A stretch of DNA of 64,000 nucleotides from Plasmodiophora brassicae (Eukaryota), in NCBI GenBank assembly GCA_036867785.1, contig CP145419.1, positions 868,001 through 932,000 on the forward strand, written 5' to 3'. Positions within the stretch are counted from its first letter, which is position 1, and every line of letters begins with the position of its first letter. Shown in pieces: positions 19,209 to 50,987 of this stretch. Both the position numbers and the translations under genes were made by a program. The notes beneath the pieces were generated by a model that made no database searches, was not told the DNA's origin, and saw only the letters and a list, made by a program, of their open reading frames with translations.

Positions 19209-19404
19209 TGTCACGGACCATGTCGTACCACCGGCACACGGTGACGCCGTGACTGTGCGCGACTGCGTAACGTCCACGGCAGAGGCTCCGCCACTGACGC
19301 CGTTGTCGGTAACGGCTTGGCAAGCCCCTGTTACACAGCGTTACGTCGCCACCGTCTTGCGCCGATGTCGGTCGGAATAAATCACTTCGTTATCGTCTTC
19401 CACA
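19209..19404 (+). mobile_element. Copia solo LTR (type B, 196 bp), TSD GATAC
   Basis: TG...CA termini. GATAC at 19204-19208 and 19405-19409. Near-identical to the LTR at 28513-28708. Confidence 0.92.
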
Positions 19405-19886: not shown

Positions 19887-20935
19887 TGTCGAACAACGTA
19901 TCCACTACGACCAGCAGCACATGCCTGCAGCACGTGAACGCCGTCACGCACTCCGCGACTCCGTGCCCGCCAGCGTTGGCAACCGTTACACCGTCGGCGA
20001 CTACGTCGCCACTGTAACGTCCGCCGCACACACCGTACGTAATACACTCACTCCATTATTGTCTTTCTCAGATTAACAGTCGTATAGGCGCAGGCGCTGA
20101 GCCTCTACTCGCCATGGCCGAGCGCCAGGCGACGCCTAACACGGATGACGACCCGCTGCGTCATCTGTCGCTCGAGGAGATCGACACCCGAATTGCCGAA
20201 GCGGAGGCAACGATCGCCAGGCAGGAGAAGATCGACCGCCTCCGCGTCCTGCAGCAGCAGCTGGCGCGTCCGACCAGCTGTCCATCGACCCCGGCCATGC
20301 CGATCATCGCCGAGGCGCACAGCCGAAGCGACGCTGGCCGACTGCCCATGCCCAAGTTCGACGGTACTCCCGACTCGTTCACGTCCTGGGTTCAGACAGC
20401 TGCACTCTGGTTTCGCAATCGTGGGTACGCGGACGTCATCGGGATCAACGAAGATGGCTCGCCGAATGCGACAACCGGTACGGCACACGACCCAGCTCTC
20501 GAGGCAGCCGCGCGCGAGATTCTACTCGTCCACATGCTGGACCACAAGATCGCGTCCGCGTTGTCTTTGTTTCAGGCAGGCTCGGCTGCCAAGTGCTGGC
20601 GCGTGCTGTTCCAGGCGTACAGCCCGTCGTCGCTGACATCGGTCGTGCGCGCCGTCCGCGACCTTGTCACGGTCCAGCACATGCCCGGCGAGTCGGTCGC
20701 CACGTACGCCGCCCGAGTTCAAGCAGCGGCTCATCGCGTCCGGTCGACGGTACCGACCGAGATGCTGTCCCTCACCGACGCATTGGTCGCCGTCTTCATC
20801 TTGGCCAACGCATCATCCGATCTCGACGCCGTCGTCGCTGGCCTGCACAATCGTGCTCTGGACACGCTGCCCAGTGTCTCCGAGGTCGTCGGGTCGTTGA
20901 CAAGCGAGGAGATCAGGGTCCAAGACGTGCGGGAC
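19887..20935 (+). mobile_element. 5' part of a Copia copy (LTR A 19887-20070, PBS, gag from 20114), interrupted by Gypsy-1
   Basis: Nearly identical to 30647-31695. Similarity stops at GGGAC|TGTCAC. Confidence 0.92.
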
Positions 20936-21111
20936 TGTCACGGTCGAGTCGCTGTCTTGGCGACTCAGCCGGCACCTAATTGGGCTCCTCCGCAGCGCAC
21001 TACTACAATAAACGTCCACGGCGTTGGACCGACCTCAGTCGGTCAATCCGTGTGGTTGACACATCTTGCTCTGTCGTCACATTTTGACCGACTACCCTTC
21101 GGTCGTACGCG

Positions 21112-22344: not shown

Positions 22345-22363
22345 ACGGGTTCCCCAGTCGCCC
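22320..22363 (+). promoter_or_regulatory. -1 programmed ribosomal frameshift signal
   Basis: Slippery G GGA AAT at 22320-22326 in the gag frame, a 6-nt spacer, then stem-loop GGGCG-T-CTG...CAG-T-CGCCC at 22333-22363. pol is in the -1 frame. Confidence 0.8.
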
Positions 22364-25300: not shown

Positions 25301-26705
25301 TACCGCCGGTCATTTTGGGGTTCGCAAGACATTGCAGCTCGTCAAGCGCGAGTTCTGGTGGCCCAAGATGTCCTCGTTCATCAAGGGTTACGTGGCGACC
25401 TGTGACACGTGTCGCCGCGTCAAACCTCCTCGCCATCGACCATCCGGCCTGCTACTTCCGCTACCAATTCCAACCGCTCTCTGGTCCTCCATCTCAATGG
25501 ACTTTATCGTCAAGCTCCCCTCCTCCCGTGGCTATGACTCTGTACTGGTCGTGGTCGACCGTTATTCGAAGATGGCCCACTTTGTGGCGTGTCGAGAATC
25601 CATTTCCGCGGATCAGCTGGCCGATCTGTTTCTTCAGAACGTGTTCCGTCTGCATGGCCTGCCCGACGACATTGTTTCGGATCGCGGACCCCAGTTCGTA
25701 TCGTTGTTCTGGAAGCACCTCCTATGCCGTCTCGGCGTTGAACGCCATCTGTCATCATCCCGCCATCCCGAATCTGATGGCCAGACCGAGCGCGTCAACC
25801 AGATATTAGAGCAATACCTTCGCTGTTATGTGTGCTACCTGCAAGACGACTGGGAGCCATTATTGCCGCTGGCCGAATTCTCTTACAATAACGTCGACCA
25901 TTCGTCCACTGGAATGTCTCCCTTCTTCGCGAACTACGGCTACCACCCTCAGCTACGCGACCCTCGTCCTTGCAAACACGGTAGCTCCAATCCCTCTGCC
26001 GATGAACGCGTGGAGAACTTGACGGCCATTCGCCGTTACCTACACCGCCAACTGCATCGTGCTGTCAGCACCATGAAACGAGCTGCGGATCGGAAACGCC
26101 GACCTCATCCCGACTTCAAGATCGGGGAGTTGGTCATGCTCCGTCGAGGGGCAATTGCGACTGGCCGGCCATGCGGTAAGCTGGATGTCCAAATGCTCGG
26201 GCCTTTCGAAGTTAGTCGCATCGTTAATCCGGTCGCCTACGAACTCCTGCTCCCGGCATCCTTCCGCATCCACAACGTCTTCCACGCATCCCAACTGGAA
26301 CCGTACGTCCCGAACGTGATACCCCATCGTGTGCAGCCTCCGCCACCCCCGATTCTGCTCGACGACGACGACCAACCGCTGTTCATCGTGAAGGAGGTCC
26401 TGGACTCTCGATATCGTGCTGGTAAGCTGCAGTATTATATCGACTGGGAAGGCTACCCTGCATCCGAGCGCACCTGGGAACCCGCCTCCAACTTGCAGGG
26501 CACCGGCGGATTCGATCGCCTGCTCGCGGCATTCCACGCTCGGTACCCAGACAAGCCCGGACCCCGTCTTCGACGCCCGACACTGCACAGGCATTGTCAT
26601 TCATACCTAATGCCGTCGTCGCTGCTTCCGCTTTGTCTGGCGTTGCGCGTTACTCGCTCGCTTGGTGCTGGGGCGAAACGACGTAGAGCTTCCGCTTGTG
26701 GATGA
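22320..26705 (+). CDS. pol: Gypsy-1 Pol (protease, RT, RNase H, integrase, chromodomain), expressed via -1 frameshift; RT active site mutated
   Basis: LLDCGAT, LCVDYRGLN, YLDG (for YLDD), ETDASD, HHCC, SMDF...SDRG...QTER, GPF, and chromodomain YYIDWEGY...TWEP. The last ~40 codons are read-through into duplicated foreign sequence. Confidence 0.92.
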   Translation, partial: GKCARASVNGFPSRPVNISFGSEPDFLHVTDLFFTSATSIPHLLVPVCLVIGSRRVSTLALLDCGATSNFIDWSFCRHHEVPVRAKSRAIPVRVIDGRHLAPITQETAPPRITVDECFDSDVVLNMIHSPQHPVILGLPWLADTNPDIDWRSHRLQHRGPRIAGISIPAGDLPASTHAVDSAASVETLPTASASEVAEVEVIALPELASDDDDDDDYCMRRRREVSAAGVDSSSASVIAPDCLSEVAVTDTVAAGHSEPPAAVVDSSSSPALAHACLSEVAAAANVAACHNDPLSSFPSGPEPSCVRHRGPVRRGAGQRLSPPRPSGGLRGRHIINLLMTASLVALAWVLGWTYLPFTRLPSGASAEPLISNAADESFFTPLVSPDGDPGSSTSIAFISAEPFLDAIVDDAACYLLHYTWTELDSDSVSGPALPDAYREFSDVFATGSPACLPPHRASDCPIDLKPGKEPPFCRLYGLSQREQVALKQYLEANLKSNFIRPSRSSAGAPILFVRKKDGSLRLCVDYRGLNSATIKNRYPLPLIDQLLANLSRATIFTKIDLRSAYNQIRIREGDEWKTAFRTPYGLFEYLVMPFGLANAPASFQSFMNDMFKDYLDQFVVVYLDGILIFSANVADHEHHVRLVLERLRASSLTANMEKCVFGAKEVEFLGYLVSRDGLRLDPARIDTILSWQPPRDIHGLQVFLGFANFYRKFIPHFAEIALPLTNLTRDGVAFIWDADAHAAFGSLKVAFTSAPVLGHFDPHQPCDVETDASDFAIAMVLSQKGGADGELHPIAYFSRKLIAAEISYPIYDKELLAVVEAFTKWRQFLDSDQHQTVVHSDHRNLVHFMSTHKLNRRQVRWSQLLSEFDFVIHHRPGRLHGKPDALTRRPEYQPSPGDEEILAMSQQLLPPHRFFRPDPAILFLQTGTSGISLVERIRREQADDPFVQKTLLSLDGPRGRRFRVADGLLYNGTALVVAGEACKLEVLHSLHDNVTAGHFGVRKTLQLVKREFWWPKMSSFIKGYVATCDTCRRVKPPRHRPSGLLLPLPIPTALWSSISMDFIVKLPSSRGYDSVLVVVDRYSKMAHFVACRESISADQLADLFLQNVFRLHGLPDDIVSDRGPQFVSLFWKHLLCRLGVERHLSSSRHPESDGQTERVNQILEQYLRCYVCYLQDDWEPLLPLAEFSYNNVDHSSTGMSPFFANYGYHPQLRDPRPCKHGSSNPSADERVENLTAIRRYLHRQLHRAVSTMKRAADRKRRPHPDFKIGELVMLRRGAIATGRPCGKLDVQMLGPFEVSRIVNPVAYELLLPASFRIHNVFHASQLEPYVPNVIPHRVQPPPPPILLDDDDQPLFIVKEVLDSRYRAGKLQYYIDWEGYPASERTWEPASNLQGTGGFDRLLAAFHARYPDKPGPRLRRPTLHRHCHSYLMPSSLLPLCLALRVTRSLGAGAKRRRASACG

Positions 26706-27818
26706 TTGTCTCCCAGACGTCTGTGCACTAACTCGGGAACGTCCTCATAGATGATATGTGCAGGTTCCCACGTCGCCTCCTCAAGATCAAACCCAGACCA
26801 CGATACCTTGATCTGCAGTTCTTGCGTGTCTCGATCGATACGACAATCCAATAGGTCGTCCACAATCAAATGCTGGTCAGTGTGTTGGAGGTGGCGCTTC
26901 AAATCGACTGTCATGTTCAAGTCAGCGTCTGCATATCGTCGAATTCGTTGCGTATGTGAGTTGAAGCGTCGTCCAGATAGTGGGTTCTCCAACTCATACA
27001 CTTGCTCGTTGATTTGCTTGACAACTCGATACGGTCCCCGCCACTGCGCTATCAGCTTCTGCGCAGGACCTGGTACCGGCTTGGCATTGAGCACGTAGTC
27101 GCCAACGATGAACGATTCGTAGGAACTACTCTTGAGTCGTCGTCGTCGTTGCTCAATATTGGCAGCATGTCGCTGTGTCTTCGCTTCATCGACGGCCTTG
27201 TGGATCTCGTCGAGAGTCTCTTGCAACATCTGCACGTATTTGGCGAATCCCTCCGGTGGTACTCGTCGACACTGTTTTTCTACAGGGTCCCAGATCTGGT
27301 CAAGTGAACGTCCCGTGATAACCGTGAATGGCGCGTAGCCGTTGAGTCGTCGACTTGGTGTGTGGTTGATGACATGCTGAACAACAGGACATAAGTACGG
27401 CCAGTTGTGCGTGCTAATCTGGGCCTCGTTCAGGACTGATCGCATGCACAGTGCGGTTCGCGCGTTCCACCGTACCGTTAGCCCACGGACAATATGCCGT
27501 TGTGATGTGATGCTGAACATCTCGTAGCCGGGTAAGCTCCTCCATGACTTCTGCAGTGAAGTGTGAACCACCGTCCGTGACCAGGTACTCGGGCGTCGCG
27601 AAATCGGCAATCCACTGATTCAGAGCTTCCGCAGCAACACGACTTGTCGCTTCATCTGATGGAATCAGACGAACAAACCACTGAAGTCGTCGTTCAAGAG
27701 CAGGATATACTTGTACTTGTGGTCCGCGCCCCTGACAGGGTCCACATAGAGATAGTCCATGGTGAGTACGTCGAACGGCAGGTGACCATGTAATGCTTCA
27801 CCGAGTGGCCGAGGAACT
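26597..27818 (-). pseudogene. Gypsy-2 integrase-chromodomain fragment (frameshifted)
   Basis: PFDVLTMDY...YILLLNDDFS, WRGPYRV, chromodomain VSWSGF...ATWEP. Mirror copy at 50988-52209. Confidence 0.88.
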
Positions 27819-29917
27819 TGTCGAACTCCATGTCTAGTACGACCAGCAGCACACTCGTGCAGCCCGCTGCCGACGCCACGCACTCCGCAAGTCCTGTGGC
27901 AGCGCCGCCACAGGTGTAACGTGCACTGCGCCGTCGCCACTGTGGCGCCGTCTATCACGTTCACTGTCGTCCAATATTTTCGCTCCGTACCTACCTCAAT
28001 ACATCACTTCGCTATTGGCTTTCTTAGATTAACAGTCGTACGCGTTCTACGCGCTTCGAGGCGGCGAGCCCGCCGGCGCCCCGCGCCCCGGTGCCATCCC
28101 AGTGCCACTCCCGCGTCACTGCGTCTCTGCCCTGACCCTGCTTCTGCACGCGCCACGAACGCCCGCTCGAGTCCGCCCCACGCGCAAGAGAGTCCGGGCA
28201 GATCGCGCCAGCAAGGCAGGCCGTCATTAAGGGGGGATCCAGAACCAGTACCGGGACGTAAGCGCCAGGCGTACGCCGGTCGTACGGGCCTCAATCGCTT
28301 GCCTCAATCGCTCCGCAAGATAACGTTGTCCGTCGGCGCAATCCGCGTCGACGTCGTCCTGAGCCAGATCCAACACCCTGCGTGTCATCGTCGACCCCGC
28401 CACAGCAAATTGCGCCATTCATGTCACCTCTAGCTACGCCACGATTCGTCTCGTGCCGCGTCAACGAGCCAAGGCATACGAGCACGTGCAAGGCCGTGTT
28501 GTTCAGGGGGCGTGTCAAGGACCATGTCGTACCACCGGCACACGGTGACGCCGTGACTGTGCGCGACTGCGTAACGTCCACGGCAGAGGCTCCGCCACTG
28601 ACGCCGTTGTCGGTAACGGCTTGGCAAGCCCCTGTTACATAGCGTTACGTCGCCGTCGTCTCGCTCCGATGTCGGTCGGAATAAATCACTTCGTTATCGT
28701 CTTCATCAGATTAACAGTCGTATAGGCGCAGGCGCCGAGCCCCTACTCGCCATGGCCGAGCGCCAGGCGACGCCAGACGCGGATGACGACCCGCTGAGCC
28801 ATCTGACGCTCAACGAGATCGACACCCAAATTGCCGAAGCGGAGGCAATCATCGCAAGGAAGGAGAAGATCGAACGTCTTTGCGTCCTGCAGCAACAGCT
28901 GGCGCGTCCGACCAGCTGTCCACCGATCCCATCCGTGCCGACCGTCACCGAGCGCACGCCCGAGGCGACACAGGTCGCCTGCCGATGCCCAAGTTTGACG
29001 GGACGCCCGACTCGTTCACGTCCTGGATTCAGACCGCTGCCCTCTGGCTCCGCAACCGTGGATACGCAAGCGTCATCGGGATCAATGAAGACGGCTCGCC
29101 GACCACGAAAACCGATACGACGCATGACCCAGCTCTGGAAGCGGCAGCGCGTGAAATTCTACTCGTCCACATGCTGGACCACAAGATCGCGTCTGCGCTG
29201 TCCTTGTTCCAAGCAGGCTCGGCTGCCAAGTGCTGGCGCGTCTTGTTCCAGGCGTACAGCCCGTCGTCGCGGGCATCGGTCGTGCGCGCCGTCCGCGACC
29301 TCGTCACGATCCAGCACACACCCGGTGAGTCTGTCGCCACATACGCCGCCAGAGTTCAAGCCGCAGCTCACCGGGTCCGGGCAACGGTACCGACCGAAAT
29401 GCTGTCCCTTACTGACGCTCTGGTTGCCGTCCTCATTCTGGCCAATGCGTCATCCGACCTGGACGCGGTCGTCGCCGGCCTGCACAACCGTGCACTGGAC
29501 ACGCTGCCCAGTGTTTCCGAGGTGGTTGCGTCACTGACAAGCGAAGAGATTTGCATTCGCGATGTTCGCGACCGGCAGGAATCATTCGAGACGGCCAACC
29601 GCTCCAGTTGCAGTACGACCCCGCGTGCCAGTGGACCGCGACGCAACGAGGCCTGCGTCTTCCATCCAGGGTCCAAGCACACCAATGGCGAGTGCAACCT
29701 GCAGCGCAGCATCTGGCGTCGCGACAACAACAACACCAATGCATCGTCCCCAACGTCCCACGAGTATCCCTCGTGCGGTGCACTCCCGACAGATCAGGCA
29801 CCCGAGCCGATCCATGCGCTGTCGGCACGACATCCCCTCGACCCCGAACCAAGCTCAGTAGGCCTGCTGGACTCCGCGTGCTCCACCACGATGACACCCC
29901 TGCGCCGTCATCTCAGC
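27819..29917 (+). mobile_element. Chimeric Copia remnant: LTR C (27819-28026), PBS, short internal region, PPT, LTR B (28513-28708), PBS, frameshifted gag/protease
   Basis: GATTAACAGTCGTA follows both LTRs and CAGGGGGCG precedes LTR B. The gag from 28752 is homologous to 30874. Mirror copy at 48889-50987. Confidence 0.85.
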
Positions 29918-30641
29918 ATTCAGAGGAGGAGGACGATGTTCCCGAACGCGTCGTCCCCCCGACGTGGTCACCACCTGATACTTGTGGCTGCGGTCGTTCA
30001 GACGGAGCTCGGCGCAGGTCTTCTTGGATACGCCACCAATCTGGGCCGAACCGTTGACAGCGGCCTTGGGAATGATCCACTCCTGCATCTGCTTCATAAT
30101 CGCCTTCAGGTCCCCTTCGCGCTTGGACTTGTCCTCCTTGACCCATTGCCTTGTGAAGTCACCTAGCCTCCATGGTTGCAACGTATCAACCAACAAAGGG
30201 CCAAGGGCTCTACGCCCACCGACCGTTTCGCGCATGTGCTGCCAGCCTCGTCTCCACTGGATTCCAGTCATGCGGTCCAGGATCGACCCTACTTGATCCC
30301 TCAGAGTCGGGAGGCTGGTGTCCATCGACAGCTCATTCGCGATTTTGGCCTCAATGTCTTGGGTCGTCAGGCCATGACTCGCTGGAAGCGATCTGCGATC
30401 GATCCATCCTTCCAGGTTGTCATCTGTCAGCAGGTCGACATTGTTCAGGAACAGGTGATTCAACGCGATGCAGGTCGGTTGCGGCGTGGTAAAGCAGAAT
30501 CGTATCGCTTGAGGCTTGATCCTCGCGGCTTCCGGACGGTTGCCCTCACGGTCGATCACCACTGCACAATATCGATCATATTGCTCTTTCAACTTCAAGA
30601 TGGATGTGGAGTCCAACTTCGCGACCTGTGGCAGGATGCTG
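29918..30641 (-). pseudogene. Gypsy-2 gag-like ORF, split by the Copia insertion (5' part at 35883-35941)
   Basis: Removing the Copia and one ACATC joins MASETTSSTDEHIGVKDADV to SILPQVAKLDSTSILKL. It lies just downstream of the Gypsy-2 5' LTR. Mirror copy at 48165-48888. Confidence 0.7.
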
Positions 30642-30646
30642 ACATC

Positions 30647-33600
30647 TGTCGAACAACGTATCCACTACGACCAGCAGCACATGCCTGCAGCACGTGAACG
30701 CCGTCACGCACTCCGCGACTCCGTGCCCGCCGGCGTTGGCAACCGTTACACCGTCGGCGACTACGTCGCCACTGTAACGTCCGCCGCACACGCCGTACGT
30801 AATACATCCACTCCATTATTGTCTTTCTCAGATTAACAGTCGTATAGGCGCAGGCGCTGAGCCTCTACTCGCCATGGCCGAGCGCCAGGCGACGCCTAAC
30901 ACGGATGACGACCCGCTGCGTCATCTGTCGCTCGAGGAGATCGACACCCGAATTGCCGAAGCGGAGGCAACGATCGCCAGGCAGGAGAAGATCGACCGTC
31001 TCCGTGTCCTGCAGCAGCAGCTGGCGCGTCCGACCAGCTGTCCATCGACCCCGGCCATGCCGATCATCGCCGAGGCGCACAGCCGAAGCGACGCAGGCCG
31101 ACTGCCCATGCCCAAGTTCGACGGTACTCCCGACTCGTTCACGTCCTGGGTTCAGACAGCTGCACTCTGGTTTCGCAATCGTGGGTACGCGGACGTCATC
31201 GGGATCAACGAAGATGGCTCGCCGACTGCGACAACCGGTACGGCACACGACCCAGCTCTCGAGGCAGCCGCGCGCGAGATTCTACTCGTCCACATGCTGG
31301 ACCACAAGATCGCGTCCGCGTTGTCTTTGTTTCAGGCAGGCTCGGCTGCCAAGTGCTGGCGCGTGCTGTTCCAGGCGTACAGCCCGTCGTCGCTGGCATC
31401 GGTCGTGCGCGCCGTCCGCGACCTCGTCACGGTCCAGCACATGCCCGGCCAGTCGGTCGCCACGTACGCCGCCCGAGTTCAAGCAGCGGCTCATCGCGTC
31501 CGGTCGATGGTACCGACCGAGATGCTGTCCCTCACCGACGCATTGGTCGCCGTCCTCATCTTGGCCAACGCATCATCCGATCTCGACGCCGTCGTCGCTG
31601 GCCTGCACAATCGTGCTCTGGACACGCTGCCCAGTGTCTCCGAGGTCGTCGGGTCGTTGACAAGCGAGGAGATCAGGGTCCAAGACGTGCGGGACCGACA
31701 CGACGCGTTCCAAACGGCCAACCGCTCCAGTTGCGCCACATCGACGCGTCCCCGTGGACCACGACGCAACGAGTCCTGCGTCTTCCATCCCGGATCCAAG
31801 CACACTAACGGCGAATGCACGCTGCAACGACACATCTGGTACCGCGACAGCAACGCGAAAAGCAATACATCCTCACCAACGTCCAACGAGTATCCAACGT
31901 CTGGCGCTCATCCGATCGATCCGGCGCCCGAGCCGATGCGTGCTTTGTCGGCACGCCACGCCATCGACGTGTACGCGAACTCAGTAGGCCTACTGGACTC
32001 AGCGTGTTCCACGACGATGACGCCCCTGCGCCGACATCTCAGCTGCTATCGCCAAGGCACCGGACCGGAAGTTGAGCTAGCCGATCTGTCGCGTACGACC
32101 ACTTCCGGTCGAGGCGTGACGTCATTCGGCATGGATGTCCAGGCGACGAGTATCGATTCGCTGCACGTTCCCCGACTTGGCCAAACGCTAGTATCAGTTG
32201 GCCAGCTCACCAGATCAGGTCACAAGATCGTGTTCGACGGCGATACCGCGAAGATCTACTCGGGGGCCAACTGGACGGCGCCCGTCGGTCAGCCAGTGGC
32301 CGTCAGTCAACGAGGACACGATAACCTGTACCGGATTCCATTATCCGCTCCAACCTCCGCGCCCGGCACACTTCATTCCGCCCGAGTCTGCTCCTTGATC
32401 GCATCCAGCGTCTCATGCCGCGTCGCTAAGGTCACCGCCGCAGCTCCAGCTGTCTGGCACGCTCGAACCGGCCACCTGGGTTACGGCAACCTGCGCATCC
32501 TGCACAAACGTTGTCGTGGCATGAAGTTCGACGGGCCAATCCCGAGGCCGCAAGATCGATGTCCATGCGCTGCATGTTTACTCGCCAAGGGCAAACGGTC
32601 ATCATTCCCTCCCAGTACGTCGCGCGCGCGTCGTGTTGGCGATCTCGTCCATAGCGATCTGTCCGGACGGTGGCCTGTCGTCGGTGTCGGCGGCTTTGAG
32701 TACTACCAGACCATGCTTGACGATTCCTCTCGGTACCTGTCCGTCTATCTGCTACGTCGCAAATCGGAGGCGCTCGACGTCATCAAGCACTATGACGCGC
32801 GTCTTCGCAACCAGGAAGGACGTGGTATCCGGACGTTCCAGACTGACGGTGGCGGCGAGTACAACTCCAAGGCGTGCGTCCTGTTCTACAACGAGTCCGG
32901 CATCCTGCACCGCAAATCTGTCCCGTACACGCCCGAGCAGAACGGCCGCGCTGAAAGCGTCAACCACACGCTCTGCGGTATCGAAAGCTCAATCCGGTGC
33001 CACTCTAGCATGCCTGACTCCACGTGGCCCTGGTCGCTGTCCTACTCTGCGATACTGTACAACATCCACCCGAGATCAGTCCTTCCCGGGCGTCGCACAT
33101 CGTTCGAGGCTGCTCGTCGCGCCCTACCTAACATCTCGGCCCTTCGTGTCTACGGTTGCGATGCCTATGCCATGCGACCACATCCAGCCACGAAGAAGCC
33201 GAGCAATTTGGAGCCTCGTCGTGTTCGCGCTGTGTTCATCGGTTTCACGCCCGGCATGAAGGCTTGGCGGTTCTACGACGTGGACCGGGAAGACACGTTC
33301 GAGAGCACGACTGCCGAGTTCCTGGAGACCTCGTTCACATTCGGCTTTGGAAGATCCAGCCCTGCTAGTTCATCATCAGCGCCACCGTCCAGTCCCGAGT
33401 CGAGCTCTGCGCCGAACGTTGACACGATCGTCCCGACGCCCGTCTCTTCCGACGCCGTCATGGCACCTCTACCATCGACGTCAGCATCCCCTCTCGCAGC
33501 ATCCCCTCCCGAGCCTCCGTCACCTGCCGCTGCGTCATCGCCTTCCGAGGTCGTCCGACCGTCGCGCTCACCGTCTCCTGATGACGTATCCACCGACGAA

Positions 33601-35882
33601 GATGATGATGACGCTGAAGATGATCCCGACTACGAAGGTTCGGCGTCCAGCAACGACTCTCCCAACGAAGCTGCCGATCCCGACGTCCACGACAATTCCG
33701 ATGCTGCTGATATCGTTGACCACAATGTCATCGACGTGCCACGCCCTCGCCGATCGAATCGTCGTCGTCAACCGCCTGGTGAATGGCGGAAGGCGCCGGA
33801 GGCGGCCAATCGTTCGTCGACACGGTGGTCCTCGACGGTCGACGCCTGGTTCCAGAATCCGACCCTAACGTCCCCGACACAGCGCCCTCCTCGTCGCTCC
33901 CGCCGACTGATCCGGCATTGGCAGCAGGTTGAGGAGCGCCGTCTGATCGATCAGGCCATCAGGTCCAACCGTCCGACATGTCGCGGCGCCGCTGCCAAGG
34001 CATGTCGAGCCAAGGTATCCGCCCCGATCGACCCAGCCCGTCTACCACGACCCGACCTGTCGAAGCTGAAAGCGACCGACATTCCCGTACCCAACTCAAT
34101 GGCCGATGCCCTCTCATCACCTTTCGCTGGCCACTGGTGGGACGCCGCCGTCACCCAGATGGCAACACTGGACGCCAAGGACACGTTCGGCCCGCTAATC
34201 GACCTGCCGAAAAGTAAGATCGCTGTTGGCGCCAAGTGGGTGTTCCGAGTGAAGTCCTCGCTCAGTGGCAACGGTGGCATCCGCAAGTTCACCGCCCGAC
34301 TCTGTGCTCAGGGCTTCCGACAACGCCCCGGCATCGACTTCGACGATACGTTCGCGCCGACCGCCCGTGCCACTGCGTTCCTCGTTATCCTAGCGCTCGC
34401 GGCGCAGCACGGCCTGCATCTTCGCCAGGTCGACTGGGTGGCCGCATACCTGAACGCCGACATGCTCCATGATGTTTACATTCGTCAGCCGGATGGCTTC
34501 ACCGATCATCACGTCCCGTACCGAGTTCGTCAACTGCAAAAGGCCCTTTATGGAACGAAACAAGGCGCCGAACGTTGGTACAAGACGCTTCGGGAGATGC
34601 TGTTATCACTCGGATTCGAATCGATCATCGCGGACCCCTGCGTCTTCCGGTACGATCGCGATGGAAAGTTCATGATCATGTCGGTGCACACCGACGACGG
34701 TCTGCTGGCGTACAATGACGTCCCGTTCGCGGAATCCGTTCTCGAGAAGCTCTCCACGATGGCCGAGATCACGGATCAAGGTGAACCGTCGACCCTGCTT
34801 GGCATGCGCATCCGACGCGAACCTGGCACCGGCGCCATCACCCTTGACCAAGCCGAGTACATCGAGAAGGTGTTGAGCGACTTCACCATGTCGCATTGTC
34901 ATCCGGTCGACACGCCGCATCAGCCTGGCGTTCACCTATCAACGACAATGAGTCCACAAAGCGACCTCGACCGCGACGAAATGGCGACCAAGCCGTACCT
35001 CAAACTTATTGGCTGCCTGACATGGCTCGCCCATCGATGCCGTCCCGACATCGCGTACATAACGAATGTACTGGCCCAATTCTCCTCGAATCCCGGCATC
35101 CAGCATTGGCGTGCGGGGCAACGCGTTCTTAAGTACCTCGCCGGCACCATGACGCACGGCATCCGATACGAACGTCAGCCCGAAGATCGTCTGATCGCAT
35201 ACGCCGACGCTGATTGGGCATCCGACCCTGACACGCGACGGTCGCGCTCCGGCCACATCATCCTGCTGGCTGGCGGCCCCGTGCACTGGCAGTCACGTCG
35301 CCAAGACCTAGGCGCAGTCATAGTTAGCTTATCGTCCACACATGCAGAGATCAAGTCGCTGTGTGCTGTTACCCGCCAGCTGGCCTGGATCCGGTCATTC
35401 CTGACCGAAATCGGCTTCGCACGCTCCAGTCCGACGATCGTATACGAGGACAATCAAGGCGCGAAGGCCTGGTCTGGCTATCGTCGGATGGATGATCGCA
35501 CGAAGGACATCGAGGTGCAGTTTCACTACACCCGGGAGGCCGTCGAGGCCAGTTTGATCGTGGTCCACAAGTGCCCGTCCGCCGAGATGGCTGCAGACTA
35601 CCTCACGAAGCCCGCTCTCAGCACCTCGTATCATGCGAACCTGCTCCTGGCCGGCATCATCGACACAAGTCCCAGGCCGTGTGCTGCTGGAGGGGGCGTG
35701 TCGAACAACGTATCCACTACGACCAGCAGCACATGCCTGCAGCACGTGAACGCCGTCACGCACTCCGCGACTCCGTGCCCGCCGGCGTTGGCAACCGTTA
35801 CACCGTCGGCGACTACGTCGCCACTGTAACGTCCGCCGCACACGCCGTACGTAATACATCCACTCCATTATTGTCTTTCTCA
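30647..35882 (+). mobile_element. Full-length Ty1/Copia retrotransposon (5236 bp), identical 184-bp LTRs, TSD ACATC
   Basis: LTRs at 30647-30830 and 35699-35882 (TG...CA), PBS at 30831-30844, PPT GGAGGGGGCG. ACATC at 30642-30646 and 35883-35887. Confidence 0.98.
30874..35829 (+). CDS. Copia Gag-Pol polyprotein, 1651 aa, intact
   Basis: Gag; protease LLDSACS; WHARTGH...CAAC; integrase HSD/TDGGGEY/QNGRAE; RT KWVF...ARL.AQGF, KALYG.KQ, HTDD; RNase H YADADWA...EDNQ...ADYLTK. Confidence 0.97.
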   Translation: MAERQATPNTDDDPLRHLSLEEIDTRIAEAEATIARQEKIDRLRVLQQQLARPTSCPSTPAMPIIAEAHSRSDAGRLPMPKFDGTPDSFTSWVQTAALWFRNRGYADVIGINEDGSPTATTGTAHDPALEAAAREILLVHMLDHKIASALSLFQAGSAAKCWRVLFQAYSPSSLASVVRAVRDLVTVQHMPGQSVATYAARVQAAAHRVRSMVPTEMLSLTDALVAVLILANASSDLDAVVAGLHNRALDTLPSVSEVVGSLTSEEIRVQDVRDRHDAFQTANRSSCATSTRPRGPRRNESCVFHPGSKHTNGECTLQRHIWYRDSNAKSNTSSPTSNEYPTSGAHPIDPAPEPMRALSARHAIDVYANSVGLLDSACSTTMTPLRRHLSCYRQGTGPEVELADLSRTTTSGRGVTSFGMDVQATSIDSLHVPRLGQTLVSVGQLTRSGHKIVFDGDTAKIYSGANWTAPVGQPVAVSQRGHDNLYRIPLSAPTSAPGTLHSARVCSLIASSVSCRVAKVTAAAPAVWHARTGHLGYGNLRILHKRCRGMKFDGPIPRPQDRCPCAACLLAKGKRSSFPPSTSRARRVGDLVHSDLSGRWPVVGVGGFEYYQTMLDDSSRYLSVYLLRRKSEALDVIKHYDARLRNQEGRGIRTFQTDGGGEYNSKACVLFYNESGILHRKSVPYTPEQNGRAESVNHTLCGIESSIRCHSSMPDSTWPWSLSYSAILYNIHPRSVLPGRRTSFEAARRALPNISALRVYGCDAYAMRPHPATKKPSNLEPRRVRAVFIGFTPGMKAWRFYDVDREDTFESTTAEFLETSFTFGFGRSSPASSSSAPPSSPESSSAPNVDTIVPTPVSSDAVMAPLPSTSASPLAASPPEPPSPAAASSPSEVVRPSRSPSPDDVSTDEDDDDAEDDPDYEGSASSNDSPNEAADPDVHDNSDAADIVDHNVIDVPRPRRSNRRRQPPGEWRKAPEAANRSSTRWSSTVDAWFQNPTLTSPTQRPPRRSRRLIRHWQQVEERRLIDQAIRSNRPTCRGAAAKACRAKVSAPIDPARLPRPDLSKLKATDIPVPNSMADALSSPFAGHWWDAAVTQMATLDAKDTFGPLIDLPKSKIAVGAKWVFRVKSSLSGNGGIRKFTARLCAQGFRQRPGIDFDDTFAPTARATAFLVILALAAQHGLHLRQVDWVAAYLNADMLHDVYIRQPDGFTDHHVPYRVRQLQKALYGTKQGAERWYKTLREMLLSLGFESIIADPCVFRYDRDGKFMIMSVHTDDGLLAYNDVPFAESVLEKLSTMAEITDQGEPSTLLGMRIRREPGTGAITLDQAEYIEKVLSDFTMSHCHPVDTPHQPGVHLSTTMSPQSDLDRDEMATKPYLKLIGCLTWLAHRCRPDIAYITNVLAQFSSNPGIQHWRAGQRVLKYLAGTMTHGIRYERQPEDRLIAYADADWASDPDTRRSRSGHIILLAGGPVHWQSRRQDLGAVIVSLSSTHAEIKSLCAVTRQLAWIRSFLTEIGFARSSPTIVYEDNQGAKAWSGYRRMDDRTKDIEVQFHYTREAVEASLIVVHKCPSAEMAADYLTKPALSTSYHANLLLAGIIDTSPRPCAAGGGVSNNVSTTTSSTCLQHVNAVTHSATPCPPALATVTPSATTSPL

Positions 35883-36005
35883 ACATCCGCGTCCTTGACA
35901 CCAATATGCTCGTCCGTGCTGGACGTCGTCTCCGATGCCATGGCGCAGCGTCTCGAACGTGGTGCGGGACGAAGTCAGACGTGTGGGATCAGACAGAGTG
36001 CGCAC

Positions 36006-38488: not shown

Positions 38489-40340
38489 TGTCGAACTCCA
38501 TATCCAGCAGCACACTCGTGCGGCACACCGACGCTGCCACGCACCCCGCAAGTCTGGTGTCAGCGCCGCCCGCGATGATGTAACGTGCACCGCGTCTCAC
38601 GTCTACGACGTTGCCCGTCACACCCAATATCTTCGCTCTATATCCATCAATATATCTCACTCTGATTTCGTCGTTTCAGATTAACAGTCGTAACAGCGCT
38701 CTGGGCGTCTCGCTCGCGTCCAACGTCATGGCCGATCGCGGCCGAACGGCGGCGGAATCAGATGTCCAAGATCTCGACGCGCAGCTCGCTGAGGCCGAGC
38801 GACAGGAGAAGATCGCGCGCATCGCATTCCTGCGCCAGCAAACCGCATCGTACACCTGCATCGCCACGACGCCGACGACGCAGCCTCGCCCAACCATTGT
38901 GGACGGCGTAGTGCGTCCAGGTACAGATCGCGTGCCTCCGCCTCGGTTCGACGGCAAGCACGAATCGTTTGCCGCTTGGGCGCCCGCCGCCGCGTCTTGG
39001 TTTACCAACCGTGGATTCGCGGGAATCAAGCCGGTGAATCGGTCGCCTTGTACGCGGCTCGTCTGCAAGCCGCTGCCCAACGTTTCCATACAACAGTCCC
39101 GAACGACGTGCTTCACATGACGGATTCCTTCCTGGCTGTCCTGATGGCTGGAAACGCCTCGTCAGAATTGGACACGGCCGCATTGTACTCGAACCGCGGC
39201 CTACCGTCACTGAGGTCGTGTCCACGCTCACATCAGAAGAGCAGCGCATTCAAGAGGCTCATGCTGACCGGGAGATATCGTTCGCAACGGCAAACCGTGC
39301 AAGCGCCACCGCACATCCGATCAAGGCTCCCGAACGCGATGGACTGTGCGTCCTACATACGACCTCGAGGAAGCCGCACACGAATGGCAACTGTTTCCTA
39401 CAGCGCTCGTTGTGGCGGACGACATCGAATACATCGTCGCAACCTGATCAGTACGTCCCGGTTCGCGCCATGTCTGCCCGTCACCCCGCCGTAGACAACA
39501 GTTCCGCCGGCCTGCTCGATTCTGGATGTTCCACCACAATGACGCCCCTGCGCGAGCATCTCGGCGCTTACCGACATGTCGCCGGACCGACTGTTGAACT
39601 TGCAGACCTGTCTCGTACGACCACTTCCGGACGTGGCGTGACGTCATTGGGCGCTGATCAGTCCCAGATGACGCCTATCGATTCGCTGCACGTCCCACGA
39701 CTCGGCCAAGCGCTCGTCTCCGTTGGACAGCTCACCCGATCCGGGCACAAGATCGTCTTCGATGGGCCCAACGCGACCATCTATTCCAAGGACCACTGGA
39801 CGTCCCCTGTCGGGACCCCGCTAGCGGTCAGCACGCGAGGAGCCGATAATCTCTACAGGATCGCCCTGCGTGCTCCCGCTGCCCCATCGTCAACTGAAAT
39901 TTATTCATCGGCTGCGCCCAGCGTGTCCTGCCGCGCCGCCACAGTCGCCTCCGCATCGCCCGCCCTTTGGCACGCGCGCGTTGGACATCTCGGCTACGTC
40001 AATCTGCGTCTCCTGCAGCGCCGCTGTCGGGGAATGGCCTTCGATCAGCCCATTCCCAAGCTTCAGGATCGATGTCCATGCGAGGCATGTCTTCTCACCA
40101 AAGGCAAGCGCTCATCATTCCCTCCCAGTACGTCGCGAGCACGTCGCGTTGGCGATCTCGTCCATAGTGACCTCTCCGGGCGGTGGCCTGTCGTCGGTAT
40201 TGGCGGTTTCGAGTATTACCAGACCATGCTGGATGATTCAACGCGCTACCTGACCGTCTACCTGCTCCGACGGAAATCGGACGCCCTCGATGTCATCAAG
40301 CACTACGATTCACGTCTACGCAACCAGGAGGGACGTGGCA
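38489..40340 (+). mobile_element. Diverged Copia subfamily, 3'-truncated (LTR D 38489-38678, PBS, frameshifted gag, protease, start of integrase)
   Basis: TG...CA LTR followed by GATTAACAGTCGTA. LLDSGCS, WHARVGH and HSDLSG are homologous to the 30874 ORF. Confidence 0.9.
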
Positions 40341-45900: not shown

Positions 45901-48159
45901 GGATGCCGGACTCGTTGTAGAACAGGACGCACGCCTTGGAGTTGTACTCGCCGCCACCGTCAGTCTGGAACGTCCGGATACCACGTCCTTCCTGGTTGCG
46001 AAGACGCGCGTCATAGTGCTTGATGACGTCGAGCGCCTCCGATTTGCGACGTAGCAGATAGACGGACAGGTACCGAGAGGAATCGTCAAGCATGGTCTGG
46101 TAGTACTCAAAGCCGCCGACACCGACGACAGGCCACCGTCCGGACAGATCGCTATGGACGAGATCGCCAACACGACGCGCGCGCGACGTACTGGGAGGGA
46201 ATGATGACCGTTTGCCCTTGGCGAGTAAACATGCAGCGCATGGACATCGATCTTGCGGCCTCGGGATTGGCCCGTCGAACTTCATGCCACGACAACGTTT
46301 GTGCAGGATGCGCAGGTTGCCGTAACCCAGGTGGCCGGTTCGAGCGTGCCAGACAGCTGGAGCTGCGGCGGTGACCTTAGCGACGCGGCATGAGACGCTG
46401 GATGCGATCAAGGAGCAGACTCGGGCGGAATGAAGTGTGCCGGGCGCGGAGGTTGGAGCGGATAATGGAATCCGGTACAGGTTATCGTGTCCTCGTTGAC
46501 TGACGGCCACTGGCTGACCGACGGGCGCCGTCCAGTTGGCCCCCGAGTAGATCTTCGCGGTATCGCCGTCGAACACGATCTTGTGACCTGATCTGGTGAG
46601 CTGGCCAACTGATACTAGCGTTTGGCCAAGTCGGGGAACGTGCAGCGAATCGATACTCGTCGCCTGGACATCCATGCCGAATGACGTCACGCCTCGACCG
46701 GAAGTGGTCGTACGCGACAGATCGGCTAGCTCAACTTCCGGTCCGGTGCCTTGGCGATAGCAGCTGAGATGTCGGCGCAGGGGCGTCATCGTCGTGGAAC
46801 ACGCTGAGTCCAGTAGGCCTACTGAGTTCGCGTACACGTCGATGGCGTGGCGTGCCGACAAAGCACGCATCGGCTCGGGCGCCGGATCGATCGGATGAGC
46901 GCCAGACGTTGGATACTCGTTGGACGTTGGTGAGGATGTATTGCTTTTCGCGTTGCTGTCGCGGTACCAGATGTGTCGTTGCAGCGTGCATTCGCCGTTA
47001 GTGTGCTTGGATCCGGGATGGAAGACGCAGGACTCGTTGCGTCGTGGTCCACGGGGACGCGTCGATGTGGCGCAACTGGAGCGGTTGGCCGTTTGGAACG
47101 CGTCGTGTCGGTCCCGCACGTCTTGGACCCTGATCTCCTCGCTTGTCAACGACCCGACGACCTCGGAGACACTGGGCAGCGTGTCCAGAGCACGATTGTG
47201 CAGGCCAGCGACGACGGCGTCGAGATCGGATGATGCGTTGGCCAAGATGAGGACGGCGACCAATGCGTCGGTGAGGGACAGCATCTCGGTCGGTACCATC
47301 GACCGGACGCGATGAGCCGCTGCTTGAACTCGGGCGGCGTACGTGGCGACCGACTGGCCGGGCATGTGCTGGACCGTGACGAGGTCGCGGACGGCGCGCA
47401 CGACCGATGCCAGCGACGACGGGCTGTACGCCTGGAACAGCACGCGCCAGCACTTGGCAGCCGAGCCTGCCTGAAACAAAGACAACGCGGACGCGATCTT
47501 GTGGTCCAGCATGTGGACGAGTAGAATCTCGCGCGCGGCTGCCTCGAGAGCTGGGTCGTGTGCCGTACCGGTTGTCGCAGTCGGCGAGCCATCTTCGTTG
47601 ATCCCGATGACGTCCGCGTACCCACGATTGCGAAACCAGAGTGCAGCTGTCTGAACCCAGGACGTGAACGAGTCGGGAGTACCGTCGAACTTGGGCATGG
47701 GCAGTCGGCCTGCGTCGCTTCGGCTGTGCGCCTCGGCGATGATCGGCATGGCCGGGGTCGATGGACAGCTGGTCGGACGCGCCAGCTGCTGCTGCAGGAC
47801 ACGGAGACGGTCGATCTTCTCCTGCCTGGCGATCGTTGCCTCCGCTTCGGCAATTCGGGTGTCGATCTCCTCGAGCGACAGATGACGCAGCGGGTCGTCA
47901 TCCGTGTTAGGCGTCGCCTGGCGCTCGGCCATGGCGAGTAGAGGCTCAGCGCCTGCGCCTATACGACTGTTAATCTGAGAAAGACAATAATGGAGTGGAT
48001 GTATTACGTACGGCGTGTGCGGCGGACGTTACAGTGGCGACGTAGTCGCCGACGGTGTAACGGTTGCCAACGCCGGCGGGCACGGAGTCGCGGAGTGCGT
48101 GACGGCGTTCACGTGCTGCAGGCATGTGCTGCTGGTCGTAGTGGATACGTTGTTCGACA
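42924..48159 (-). mobile_element. Second full-length Copia copy (LTRs 47976-48159 and 42924-43107), mismatched flanks ACATC/TCTAC
   Basis: Mirror of 30647-35882. Confidence 0.97.
42977..47932 (-). CDS. Copia Gag-Pol polyprotein, 1651 aa (same translation as 30874-35829)
   Basis: Translation appears identical in the ORF track. Confidence 0.97.
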   Translation of the reverse strand: MAERQATPNTDDDPLRHLSLEEIDTRIAEAEATIARQEKIDRLRVLQQQLARPTSCPSTPAMPIIAEAHSRSDAGRLPMPKFDGTPDSFTSWVQTAALWFRNRGYADVIGINEDGSPTATTGTAHDPALEAAAREILLVHMLDHKIASALSLFQAGSAAKCWRVLFQAYSPSSLASVVRAVRDLVTVQHMPGQSVATYAARVQAAAHRVRSMVPTEMLSLTDALVAVLILANASSDLDAVVAGLHNRALDTLPSVSEVVGSLTSEEIRVQDVRDRHDAFQTANRSSCATSTRPRGPRRNESCVFHPGSKHTNGECTLQRHIWYRDSNAKSNTSSPTSNEYPTSGAHPIDPAPEPMRALSARHAIDVYANSVGLLDSACSTTMTPLRRHLSCYRQGTGPEVELADLSRTTTSGRGVTSFGMDVQATSIDSLHVPRLGQTLVSVGQLTRSGHKIVFDGDTAKIYSGANWTAPVGQPVAVSQRGHDNLYRIPLSAPTSAPGTLHSARVCSLIASSVSCRVAKVTAAAPAVWHARTGHLGYGNLRILHKRCRGMKFDGPIPRPQDRCPCAACLLAKGKRSSFPPSTSRARRVGDLVHSDLSGRWPVVGVGGFEYYQTMLDDSSRYLSVYLLRRKSEALDVIKHYDARLRNQEGRGIRTFQTDGGGEYNSKACVLFYNESGILHRKSVPYTPEQNGRAESVNHTLCGIESSIRCHSSMPDSTWPWSLSYSAILYNIHPRSVLPGRRTSFEAARRALPNISALRVYGCDAYAMRPHPATKKPSNLEPRRVRAVFIGFTPGMKAWRFYDVDREDTFESTTAEFLETSFTFGFGRSSPASSSSAPPSSPESSSAPNVDTIVPTPVSSDAVMAPLPSTSASPLAASPPEPPSPAAASSPSEVVRPSRSPSPDDVSTDEDDDDAEDDPDYEGSASSNDSPNEAADPDVHDNSDAADIVDHNVIDVPRPRRSNRRRQPPGEWRKAPEAANRSSTRWSSTVDAWFQNPTLTSPTQRPPRRSRRLIRHWQQVEERRLIDQAIRSNRPTCRGAAAKACRAKVSAPIDPARLPRPDLSKLKATDIPVPNSMADALSSPFAGHWWDAAVTQMATLDAKDTFGPLIDLPKSKIAVGAKWVFRVKSSLSGNGGIRKFTARLCAQGFRQRPGIDFDDTFAPTARATAFLVILALAAQHGLHLRQVDWVAAYLNADMLHDVYIRQPDGFTDHHVPYRVRQLQKALYGTKQGAERWYKTLREMLLSLGFESIIADPCVFRYDRDGKFMIMSVHTDDGLLAYNDVPFAESVLEKLSTMAEITDQGEPSTLLGMRIRREPGTGAITLDQAEYIEKVLSDFTMSHCHPVDTPHQPGVHLSTTMSPQSDLDRDEMATKPYLKLIGCLTWLAHRCRPDIAYITNVLAQFSSNPGIQHWRAGQRVLKYLAGTMTHGIRYERQPEDRLIAYADADWASDPDTRRSRSGHIILLAGGPVHWQSRRQDLGAVIVSLSSTHAEIKSLCAVTRQLAWIRSFLTEIGFARSSPTIVYEDNQGAKAWSGYRRMDDRTKDIEVQFHYTREAVEASLIVVHKCPSAEMAADYLTKPALSTSYHANLLLAGIIDTSPRPCAAGGGVSNNVSTTTSSTCLQHVNAVTHSATPCPPALATVTPSATTSPL

Positions 48160-50987
48160 GATGTCAGCATCCTGCCACAGGTCGCGAAGTTGGACTCCAC
48201 ATCCATCTTGAAGTTGAAAGAGCAATATGATCGATATTGTGCAGTGGTGATCGACCGTGAGGGCAACCGTCCGGAAGCCGCGAGGATCAAGCCTCAAGCG
48301 ATACGATTCTGCTTTACCACGCCGCAACCGACCTGCATCGCGTTGAATCACCTGTTCCTGAACAATGTCGACCTGCTGACAGATGACAACCTGGAAGGAT
48401 GGATCGATCGCAGATCGCTTCCAGCGAGTCATGGCCTGACGACCCAAGACATTGAGGCCAAAATCGCGAATGAGCTGTCGATGGACACCAGCCTCCCGAC
48501 TCTGAGGGATCAAGTAGGGTCGATCCTGGACCGCATGACTGGAATCCAGTGGAGACGAGGCTGGCAGCACATGCGCGAAACGGTCGGTGGGCGTAGAGCC
48601 CTTGGCCCTTTGTTGGTTGATACGTTGCAACCATGGAGGCTAGGTGACTTCACAAGGCAATGGGTCAAGGAGGACAAGTCCAAGCGCGAAGGGGACCTGA
48701 AGGCGATTATGAAGCAGATGCAGGAGTGGATCATTCCCAAGGCCGCTGTCAACGGTTCGGCCCAGATTGGTGGCGTATCCAAGAAGACCTGCGCCGAGCT
48801 CCGTCTGAACGACCGCAGCCACAAGTATCAGGTGGTGACCACGTCGGGGGGACGACGCGTTCGGGAACATCGTCCTCCTCCTCTGAATGCTGAGATGACG
48901 GCGCAGGGGTGTCATCGTGGTGGAGCACGCGGAGTCCAGCAGGCCTACTGAGCTTGGTTCGGGGTCGAGGGGATGTCGTGCCGACAGCGCATGGATCGGC
49001 TCGGGTGCCTGATCTGTCGGGAGTGCACCGCACGAGGGATACTCGTGGGACGTTGGGGACGATGCATTGGTGTTGTTGTTGTCGCGACGCCAGATGCTGC
49101 GCTGCAGGTTGCACTCGCCATTGGTGTGCTTGGACCCTGGATGGAAGACGCAGGCCTCGTTGCGTCGCGGTCCACTGGCACGCGGGGTCGTACTGCAACT
49201 GGAGCGGTTGGCCGTCTCGAATGATTCCTGCCGGTCGCGAACATCGCGAATGCAAATCTCTTCGCTTGTCAGTGACGCAACCACCTCGGAAACACTGGGC
49301 AGCGTGTCCAGTGCACGGTTGTGCAGGCCGGCGACGACCGCGTCCAGGTCGGATGACGCATTGGCCAGAATGAGGACGGCAACCAGAGCGTCAGTAAGGG
49401 ACAGCATTTCGGTCGGTACCGTTGCCCGGACCCGGTGAGCTGCGGCTTGAACTCTGGCGGCGTATGTGGCGACAGACTCACCGGGTGTGTGCTGGATCGT
49501 GACGAGGTCGCGGACGGCGCGCACGACCGATGCCCGCGACGACGGGCTGTACGCCTGGAACAAGACGCGCCAGCACTTGGCAGCCGAGCCTGCTTGGAAC
49601 AAGGACAGCGCAGACGCGATCTTGTGGTCCAGCATGTGGACGAGTAGAATTTCACGCGCTGCCGCTTCCAGAGCTGGGTCATGCGTCGTATCGGTTTTCG
49701 TGGTCGGCGAGCCGTCTTCATTGATCCCGATGACGCTTGCGTATCCACGGTTGCGGAGCCAGAGGGCAGCGGTCTGAATCCAGGACGTGAACGAGTCGGG
49801 CGTCCCGTCAAACTTGGGCATCGGCAGGCGACCTGTGTCGCCTCGGGCGTGCGCTCGGTGACGGTCGGCACGGATGGGATCGGTGGACAGCTGGTCGGAC
49901 GCGCCAGCTGTTGCTGCAGGACGCAAAGACGTTCGATCTTCTCCTTCCTTGCGATGATTGCCTCCGCTTCGGCAATTTGGGTGTCGATCTCGTTGAGCGT
50001 CAGATGGCTCAGCGGGTCGTCATCCGCGTCTGGCGTCGCCTGGCGCTCGGCCATGGCGAGTAGGGGCTCGGCGCCTGCGCCTATACGACTGTTAATCTGA
50101 TGAAGACGATAACGAAGTGATTTATTCCGACCGACATCGGAGCGAGACGACGGCGACGTAACGCTATGTAACAGGGGCTTGCCAAGCCGTTACCGACAAC
50201 GGCGTCAGTGGCGGAGCCTCTGCCGTGGACGTTACGCAGTCGCGCACAGTCACGGCGTCACCGTGTGCCGGTGGTACGACATGGTCCTTGACACGCCCCC
50301 TGAACAACACGGCCTTGCACGTGCTCGTATGCCTTGGCTCGTTGACGCGGCACGAGACGAATCGTGGCGTAGCTAGAGGTGACATGAATGGCGCAATTTG
50401 CTGTGGCGGGGTCGACGATGACACGCAGGGTGTTGGATCTGGCTCAGGACGACGTCGACGCGGATTGCGCCGACGGACAACGTTATCTTGCGGAGCGATT
50501 GAGGCAAGCGATTGAGGCCCGTACGACCGGCGTACGCCTGGCGCTTACGTCCCGGTACTGGTTCTGGATCCCCCCTTAATGACGGCCTGCCTTGCTGGCG
50601 CGATCTGCCCGGACTCTCTTGCGCGTGGGGCGGACTCGAGCGGGCGTTCGTGGCGCGTGCAGAAGCAGGGTCAGGGCAGAGACGCAGTGACGCGGGAGTG
50701 GCACTGGGATGGCACCGGGGCGCGGGGCGCCGGCGGGCTCGCCGCCTCGAAGCGCGTAGAACGCGTACGACTGTTAATCTAAGAAAGCCAATAGCGAAGT
50801 GATGTATTGAGGTAGGTACGGAGCGAAAATATTGGACGACAGTGAACGTGATAGACGGCGCCACAGTGGCGACGGCGCAGTGCACGTTACACCTGTGGCG
50901 GCGCTGCCACAGGACTTGCGGAGTGCGTGGCGTCGGCAGCGGGCTGCACGAGTGTGCTGCTGGTCGTACTAGACATGGAGTTCGACA

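Follow-up and report, generated by a model that had tools for sequence, protein, structure and literature searches.

Priming of retrotransposons by half of a transfer RNA (tRNA) has been known since 1986. Hemiviruses initiate complementary DNA (cDNA) at the 3'-OH of nucleotide 40, and the full-length tree does not track primer type, according to the account given in PMC1181622. In this work, the 64,000-nucleotide (nt) stretch of Plasmodiophora brassicae contig CP145419.1 between positions 868,001 and 932,000 (forward strand; hereafter the window) was analysed with respect to an intact copia element, element D, and the 14-nt site GATTAACAGTCGTA directly behind its 5' long terminal repeat (LTR). 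This site is very probably the minus-strand primer-binding site (PBS) of several P. brassicae Ty1/copia lineages, which would be primed by a 5' fragment of tRNA-Asn(GUU). The reading was supported by where the site lies, by how exactly it is conserved, by its identity with the arms of natural tRNA-Asn genes, by the register of the match and by the absence of rival priming signals.

For plants, the lineage descriptions of Neumann 2019 (PMC6317226) place half-tRNA PBSs only in copia lineages and treat primer type as characteristic of a lineage. 1/2tRNA-Met is given there for Osser, Bryco and Gymco-II and 1/2tRNA-Ile for Bianca, with no other half-tRNA primers named in these descriptions, and tRNA-Asn is listed only among the PBSs mostly complementary to tRNA 3' ends, at 2% of elements. 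In the text of Kojima 2024 (PMC10886601), PBSs complementary to anticodon loops are reported for most fungal Helenus terminal-repeat retrotransposons in miniature (TRIMs) and for the matching Puccinia Copia families. The half-tRNA primers given there for rust fungi are Tyr, Ile, Asp and iMet (initiator methionine), and a PBS for the tRNA-Asn-GTT anticodon loop is described in Helenus. For the autonomous Copia-6_PHord, tRNA-Asp is named in one paragraph and Asn-GTT in another, and an Asn-primed autonomous copia is not clearly stated in these paragraphs. In the supplement of the same paper, Helenus-3_PGr-I begins cGATTAACAGTCGaa and LTR-2_PSt-I begins cAATTAACAGTCGaa; TTAACAGTCG occurs eight times in it, two of these occurrences being the starts of the two elements. 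A preliminary description of the window had regarded the primer type as undescribed, which was not borne out, since the Asn-GTT PBS of rust Helenus with the same core is in print (PMC10886601). Half-tRNA primers other than iMet, such as the 1/2tRNA-Ile of Bianca (PMC6317226), are likewise published. No published source besides Kojima 2024 was found for an Asn-GTT anticodon-loop PBS, and a literature search on Plasmodiophora and primer-binding sites returned no description of a P. brassicae PBS. Hence, the primer type is known, and the present elements would, judged by their sequence, be the first such case found in a rhizarian host and among copia elements that are clearly autonomous.

The features of element D, including its target-site duplication (TSD), its gag-pol open reading frame (ORF) and its polypurine tract (PPT), are as follows.

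30642..30646, plus strand: left copy of the TSD ACATC of element D; the same 5 nt recur at 35883-35887
30647..30830, plus strand: 5' LTR of the intact copia element D, 184 nt, TG...CA; 100% identical to 35699-35882
30831..30844, plus strand: predicted PBS GATTAACAGTCGTA of element D, complementary to tRNA-Asn(GUU) positions 27-40
30874..35829, plus strand: gag-pol ORF of 1651 amino acids (P0001), integrase before reverse transcriptase (RT), its end inside the 3' LTR
35689..35698, plus strand: PPT GGAGGGGGCG of element D, immediately before its 3' LTR
35699..35882, plus strand: 3' LTR of element D, 100% identical to the 5' LTR
35883..35887, plus strand: right copy of the TSD ACATC of element D, matching the left copy

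Element D is a complete, young Ty1/copia element of P. brassicae. As in Ty1/copia elements generally, a single polyprotein carries an RVT_2-type RT with the integrase upstream of it, the LTRs end in TG...CA, the TSD is 5 base pairs (bp) long and a PPT precedes the 3' LTR. The Pfam domains of P0001 were Retrotran_gag_2 (133-271), Pol_BBD (373-449), gag_pre-integrs (511-572), rve (590-687) and RVT_2 (1108-1349), and an SH3_retrovirus domain was also detected in this ORF. A P. brassicae protein at NCBI, likewise of 1651 amino acids, was 100% identical to residues 1050-1600 of P0001, the part that was searched. Relatives at 59% identity (P0003-P0005) were found among metagenome proteins, the range over P0003-P0007 being 47-59%, and none were found in viral contigs. 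The ORF extended 131 nt into the 3' LTR (35699-35829), its final residues being encoded by the LTR. The distance from the PBS to the gag ATG was 29 nt. Because the element is complete, with identical LTRs, a TSD, a PPT and a full ORF, the 14-mer lies exactly at the position required of a PBS.

The copies of the 14-mer in the window were located as follows.

30831-30844, 20071, 28027, 28709 and 38679 (plus strand); 47962, 50084 and 50766 (minus strand): GATTAACAGTCGTA, all copies exact

These eight exact copies were obtained in a search that allowed up to two mismatches and for which 0.20 matches were expected; none of 100 shuffles attained eight matches. Each copy adjoined an LTR terminus, which read ...TCTCA, ...TCTTA, ...CATCA or ...TTTCA. 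The minus-strand copies lie in an inverted duplication, so the three are not independent and five junctions remain (A at 20071, B at 28027, C at 28709, D at 30831 and E at 38679), with four LTR types. The mirror copies cited in the preliminary description are thus present, and they lose their weight as independent evidence because they fall within this 9.3-kb duplication. A and D belong to one LTR family, and B, C and E represent the other types, whose LTRs were 75-77% identical over parts or could not be aligned. Across the four types, the mean pairwise identity was 1.00 in the 14-mer, the sole invariant block at the junctions. The 14 nt on its upstream side averaged 0.57 and the 14 nt on its downstream side 0.42, and values of 0.32 and 0.45 were obtained for the more distant flanks. 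The described conservation of the site behind four LTR types amid divergent neighbours (flanks 0.32-0.57) was thereby confirmed, as was the extended form at 28027, where copy B carries CGCGTACGACTGTTAATC.

Read as its reverse complement, TACGA-CTGTTAA-TC, the site is built like an anticodon arm whose anticodon is GTT. With the Rfam tRNA model, UACGA/CUGUUAA/UCGUA was aligned as the anticodon stem-loop. In a 74-nt tRNA-Asn gene from a metagenome contig (L111), the anticodon began at linear position 35, which is standard position 34, the gene having an extra D-loop base. The Rfam alignment and the position of the anticodon together identify the site with standard tRNA positions 27-40. In other words, the tRNA segment complementary to the site consists of the anticodon stem's 5' strand, the complete loop CUGUUAA and two nucleotides at the start of the stem's 3' strand. 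As in half-tRNA-primed elements, it abuts the 5' LTR, is complementary to an anticodon stem-loop and has its first base opposite nucleotide 40. The earlier observation that its complement reads as a tRNA-Asn(GUU) arm ending at position 40 was upheld by natural genes, whose positions 27-40 are identical. Moreover, copy B showed 18 nt of complementarity, GATTAACAGTCGTACGCG, to positions 23-40 of a eukaryote-type tRNA-Asn, in agreement with the CGCG found immediately 5' of the arm in three loci (L061, L090 and L111). The genes of L090 and L111 had the D arm GGCGCAA..TTAGCGCG and a T-run after the gene. The locus L061:80-502, on a metagenome contig of 38% guanine-plus-cytosine (GC), held a tight cluster of four tRNA genes in about 420 nt, among them those for His, Glu and Asn; its Asn gene had the same arm, with CGCG before it.

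How widely this arm occurs was seen from a scan of metagenome contigs with a 17-mer, which consisted of the reverse complement of the site plus GTA to complete the stem. At least 119 loci were matched. ARAGORN predicted 192 tRNAs in them, and 104 of these contained the 17-mer (79 distinct sequences). Among the matches listed, 101 of the 104 were labelled Asn(gtt), and the other three were odd 101-nt Ile(aat) predictions. The scan shows that tRNA-Asn genes bearing this exact arm occur commonly in nature, which is no proof for the host.

The host was approached through sequencing runs that contain element D. At least half of the sampled words of the element were present in 17 runs, and the contigs of four of these (each with about 0.8 of the words) were aligned to the L111 tRNA-Asn gene at 80% likeness. 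From run X2 came a single 75-nt contig (depth 497), which differed from the gene at six positions over the aligned stretch 280-336 (57 nt). Run X11 gave two contigs, one over 280-322 (43 nt, three differences) and one over 297-336 (40 nt, four differences). The alignment reported counts only, and the differences were placed by arithmetic on the assumption that all three contigs represent one sequence: two fell in 280-296 (D arm), one in 297-322 and three in 323-336 (T stem). The stretch 297-322 (26 nt) holds the arm (17 nt), the CGCG before it and the variable loop (5 nt) after it. The loose contig ends, ...GTCTGA before 280 and GGGCTCGGACGTTGACTTTTGC after 336, can be paired into an acceptor stem (GTCTGAG/CTCGGAC, one of the pairs being G-U), behind which comes a T-run; we take these ends to be unlike plant tRNA-Asn. 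According to these results, two of the four element-bearing runs also appear to carry a multi-copy, eukaryote-type tRNA-Asn that is identical to the predicted region at no fewer than 25 of 26 positions. A host tRNA-Asn fully identical at positions 27-40 is likely on this evidence.

The site was also found in a distant copia element. A 16-mer made of CA and the site had seven matches in viral contigs and 27 in a prokaryote genome collection. ARAGORN found no tRNA at any of these 34 loci, and 33 of them had no copia by tblastn and were taken as chance. The remaining locus (L134) was a copia element on a 2709-nt contig of 42% GC in a bacterial metagenome-assembled genome (L154, G001:C8:1-2709). 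This contig is probably a eukaryotic stray in the bacterial bin, that is, binning contamination; the genome holding it had no match to the arm-derived 15-mer ACGACTGTTAATCGT. The contig contained an open pol frame of 755 amino acids with an RVT_2 score of 90.8 bits and 22.9% identity to P0001 over 319 amino acids (E 7e-12). After pol came the PPT-like AAAGTTGGGGAG and an LTR (about 390 nt) with the terminus ...TTGTCA, and GATTAACAGTCGTA stood right behind this LTR at the contig end. The protein had 1546 relatives, being very abundant among metagenome proteins, and none were found in viral contigs. The identical 14-mer thus occupies the corresponding position in a very distant copia of another organism, as is expected if a conserved host tRNA sets the site.

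In the favoured mechanism, host tRNA-Asn is predicted to carry the exact arm, with positions 27-40 reading TACGACUGUUAAUC / TACGACTGTTAATC. A cleaved fragment of this tRNA would exist and act as the primer: the 5' fragment with its 3'-OH at nucleotide 40 would anneal to the site, and RT would extend it through U5 and R. A PBS of the retroviral type is regenerated from the primer in every replication cycle. In the present elements, plus-strand strong-stop synthesis would re-copy the 3' part of the primer and reset the site to the tRNA sequence each time, and this re-copying would account for the invariance of the 14 nt across diverged families. Copies A, C, D and E and the L154 element share a limit at position 27. 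Going by what is generally known of tRNA modification, this limit may reflect an RT stop at a modified G26. We know of no identified enzyme that produces the half-tRNA primer fragment, nor of one that makes the cut at 40/41 in copia. The proposal in the preliminary description, that half of tRNA-Asn primes these elements in the register of copia and Ty5, stands as regards the register and the identity of the arm with that of natural tRNA-Asn genes, and the exact arm of the host's own tRNA, seen indirectly, and the primer molecule itself stay putative.

Several points weigh against this interpretation. The tRNA-Asn fragment and the cut at 40/41 are what we infer, not what was observed. Complementarity beyond 14 nt was present in copy B only, and a 4-nt extension in one of four types could be chance. 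The completion of the 17-mer with GTA skews its matches toward hairpins and hence toward tRNAs. Furthermore, no contig of X12 or X10 aligned to tRNA-Asn, which is not proof of its absence from these two runs, and one mismatch inside positions 27-40 is possible, as the single difference in 297-322 may fall anywhere in the 26 nt.

Three other explanations of the site were considered. The first is that the primer is another small host RNA, or a tRNA-like transcript, ending ...UACGACUGUUAAUC. In its favour, tRNA-like transcripts do occur in LTR elements, as described for Helenus of rust fungi (PMC10886601). Against this, the loop CUGUUAA and the two nucleotides of the return strand fit an anticodon arm exactly, nearly all arm-containing tRNAs among the matches listed were Asn(gtt) (101 of 104), the register equals the published nucleotide 40 (PMC1181622), and the tRNA-like LTR parts of Helenus are described by Kojima as having no complementarity to their own PBSs (PMC10886601). 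Such a primer is very improbable. The second explanation, a different cis signal (packaging, dimerisation or leader translation) that resembles tRNA-Asn by coincidence, draws on the fact that the link between site and priming rests on sequence. It is very improbable: no alternative conserved PBS candidate followed the LTRs, an unrelated copia lineage of another organism carries the full 14-mer in the equivalent position, and the rust TRIMs have the 12-nt core. Such recurrence in unrelated elements fits a site imposed by a conserved tRNA of the host and does not fit a signal peculiar to one element.

The third explanation is self-priming as in Tf1/Sushi or plant TAR, where the transcript of the element folds its 5' end back onto the site and is cut to form the primer. 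The site lacks an initial TGG, as in self-priming elements, and self-priming is predicted for some plant copia lineages in the account of PMC6317226. Self-priming is nevertheless extremely improbable here: none of the five LTRs matched the complement of the site exactly over more than 6 nt, a length equalled by 53-74 of 300 shuffles per LTR, and the four LTR types diverge while the site is fixed, which leaves no covarying partner. Better pairing with the element's own transcript had been named beforehand as an outcome that would speak against tRNA-Asn, and the pairing seen was at chance level. A PBS for a tRNA 3' end was rejected, as no TGG follows the LTR in A-D and only E has a TGG, at +24; the unusual non-TGG start noted in the preliminary description therefore holds.

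Priming by half of tRNA-Asn may extend beyond P. brassicae. It is conceivable, albeit rather doubtful, that it represents a recurrent solution across kingdoms, used by P. brassicae copia, by the distant copia of a 42%-GC eukaryote and by rust TRIMs, with the host setting the limits 27 and 40. A conserved activity cutting tRNA between 40 and 41 would then set one limit, and an RT stop at G26 the other. If this were true, such elements would report a widespread tRNA-cleaving activity acting beyond the initiator tRNA. Each further tRNA used in the same register (iMet, Ile, Tyr and Asn) argues that the 40/41 cut is independent of the identity of any one tRNA. P. brassicae adds a rhizarian host and an element that is young and intact, has identical LTRs and makes the prediction testable. 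In addition, a PBS finder that is limited to tRNA 3' ends will overlook these copia families or classify them wrongly.

The remaining copies of the site in the window are parts of the following features.

19887..20084, plus strand: copy A, 5' LTR 19887-20070 and PBS 20071-20084; family of D, 98.6% over 1056 nt
27819..28044, plus strand: copy B, LTR type 2 (27819-28026) and PBS; complementarity spans 18 nt
28513..28722, plus strand: copy C, LTR type 3 (28513-28708) and PBS 28709-28722; the PPT-like CAGGGGGCG precedes the LTR
38489..38692, plus strand: copy E, LTR type 4 (about 38489-38678) and PBS 38679-38692; internal part 75% identical to D
47962..47975, minus strand: mirror of the PBS of D, in the inverted duplication and not independent
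50084..50097, minus strand: mirror of the PBS of C, in the inverted duplication and not independent
50766..50779, minus strand: mirror of the PBS of B, in the inverted duplication and not independent

The likeness of copy A to D stopped at 20942, where a sequence beginning TGTCACGG followed. The flanks of A and D differ, an apparent common flank of 10 nt being a loose likeness only, and the two are therefore separate insertions. The gag region of copy C was 84% identical to D, and the internal part of copy E contained the copia domains Pol_BBD and gag_pre-integrs. In the region 28027-28722, the LTR type 2 of B and its PBS were followed by about 470 nt without gag and the PPT-like CAGGGGGCG, after which came LTR type 3 with another PBS. 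A single LTR at B/C seems to have two roles, as 3' LTR of a short internal stretch and as 5' LTR of C; the arrangement could be a tandem, a recombinant or a non-autonomous derivative. A solo LTR of type C at 19209-19404, 97% identical to 28513-28704, was flanked by the 5-bp TSD GATAC. No PBS followed this LTR, and the GAT there belongs to the duplication of the target site.

The inverted duplication joins 26580-35882 and 42924-52226 (9303 nt) and was listed as 100% complementary in the repeat analysis; over element D, it was 99.98% (one mismatch in 5236 nt). Its inner edge coincided with the exact outer end of the 3' LTR of D, and the mirror is without ACATC on that side. The duplication could be a rearrangement mediated by the LTR end or an assembly artefact. 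LTR elements lie nested around D. Downstream of A, a Ty3/gypsy chromovirus ORF (22158-26705) encoded RVT_1, RNase H, integrase and a chromodomain, and a second integrase-chromodomain fragment was present on the minus strand at 26597-27610. A bioRxiv account (10.64898/2026.10.14.759018) puts the share of transposable elements in P. brassicae genomes at 11-14% and links the LTR-rich blocks of these genomes with structural variation. The sole tRNA gene in the window was an 88-nt tRNA-Ser(GGA) on the minus strand (12280-12367).

Among known systems, half-tRNA priming was reportedly demonstrated by experiment for copia and Ty5, going by the titles of Kikuchi 1986 and Ke 1999, whereas here we infer it. 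The copia-type Ty4 of yeast is said to use tRNA-Asn, pairing with the 3' end of the intact tRNA and not with the anticodon arm. The hemivirus-type Pseudoviridae (Drosophila copia and 1731, yeast Ty5 and Volvox Osser), as characterised in PMC1181622 and PMC10886601, are also Ty1/copia elements in which the PBS abuts the 5' LTR, pairs with an anticodon stem-loop and starts synthesis at nucleotide 40. They use tRNAiMet, whereas the P. brassicae site points to Asn(GUU), and the likeness concerns the priming register and not phylogenetic membership. The plant lineages Bianca, Osser, Bryco and Gymco-II likewise have a half-tRNA PBS, but for Ile or Met and not Asn in the account of PMC6317226. The closest counterpart is Helenus of rust fungi as presented in PMC10886601. 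Its hosts are fungi and not rhizarians, the documented cases of the Asn type are non-autonomous TRIMs, the evidence there is likewise complementarity only, and one extra base (c) stands between LTR and core. Nevertheless, these rust elements and P. brassicae have the 12-nt core GATTAACAGTCG and 5-bp TSDs in common.

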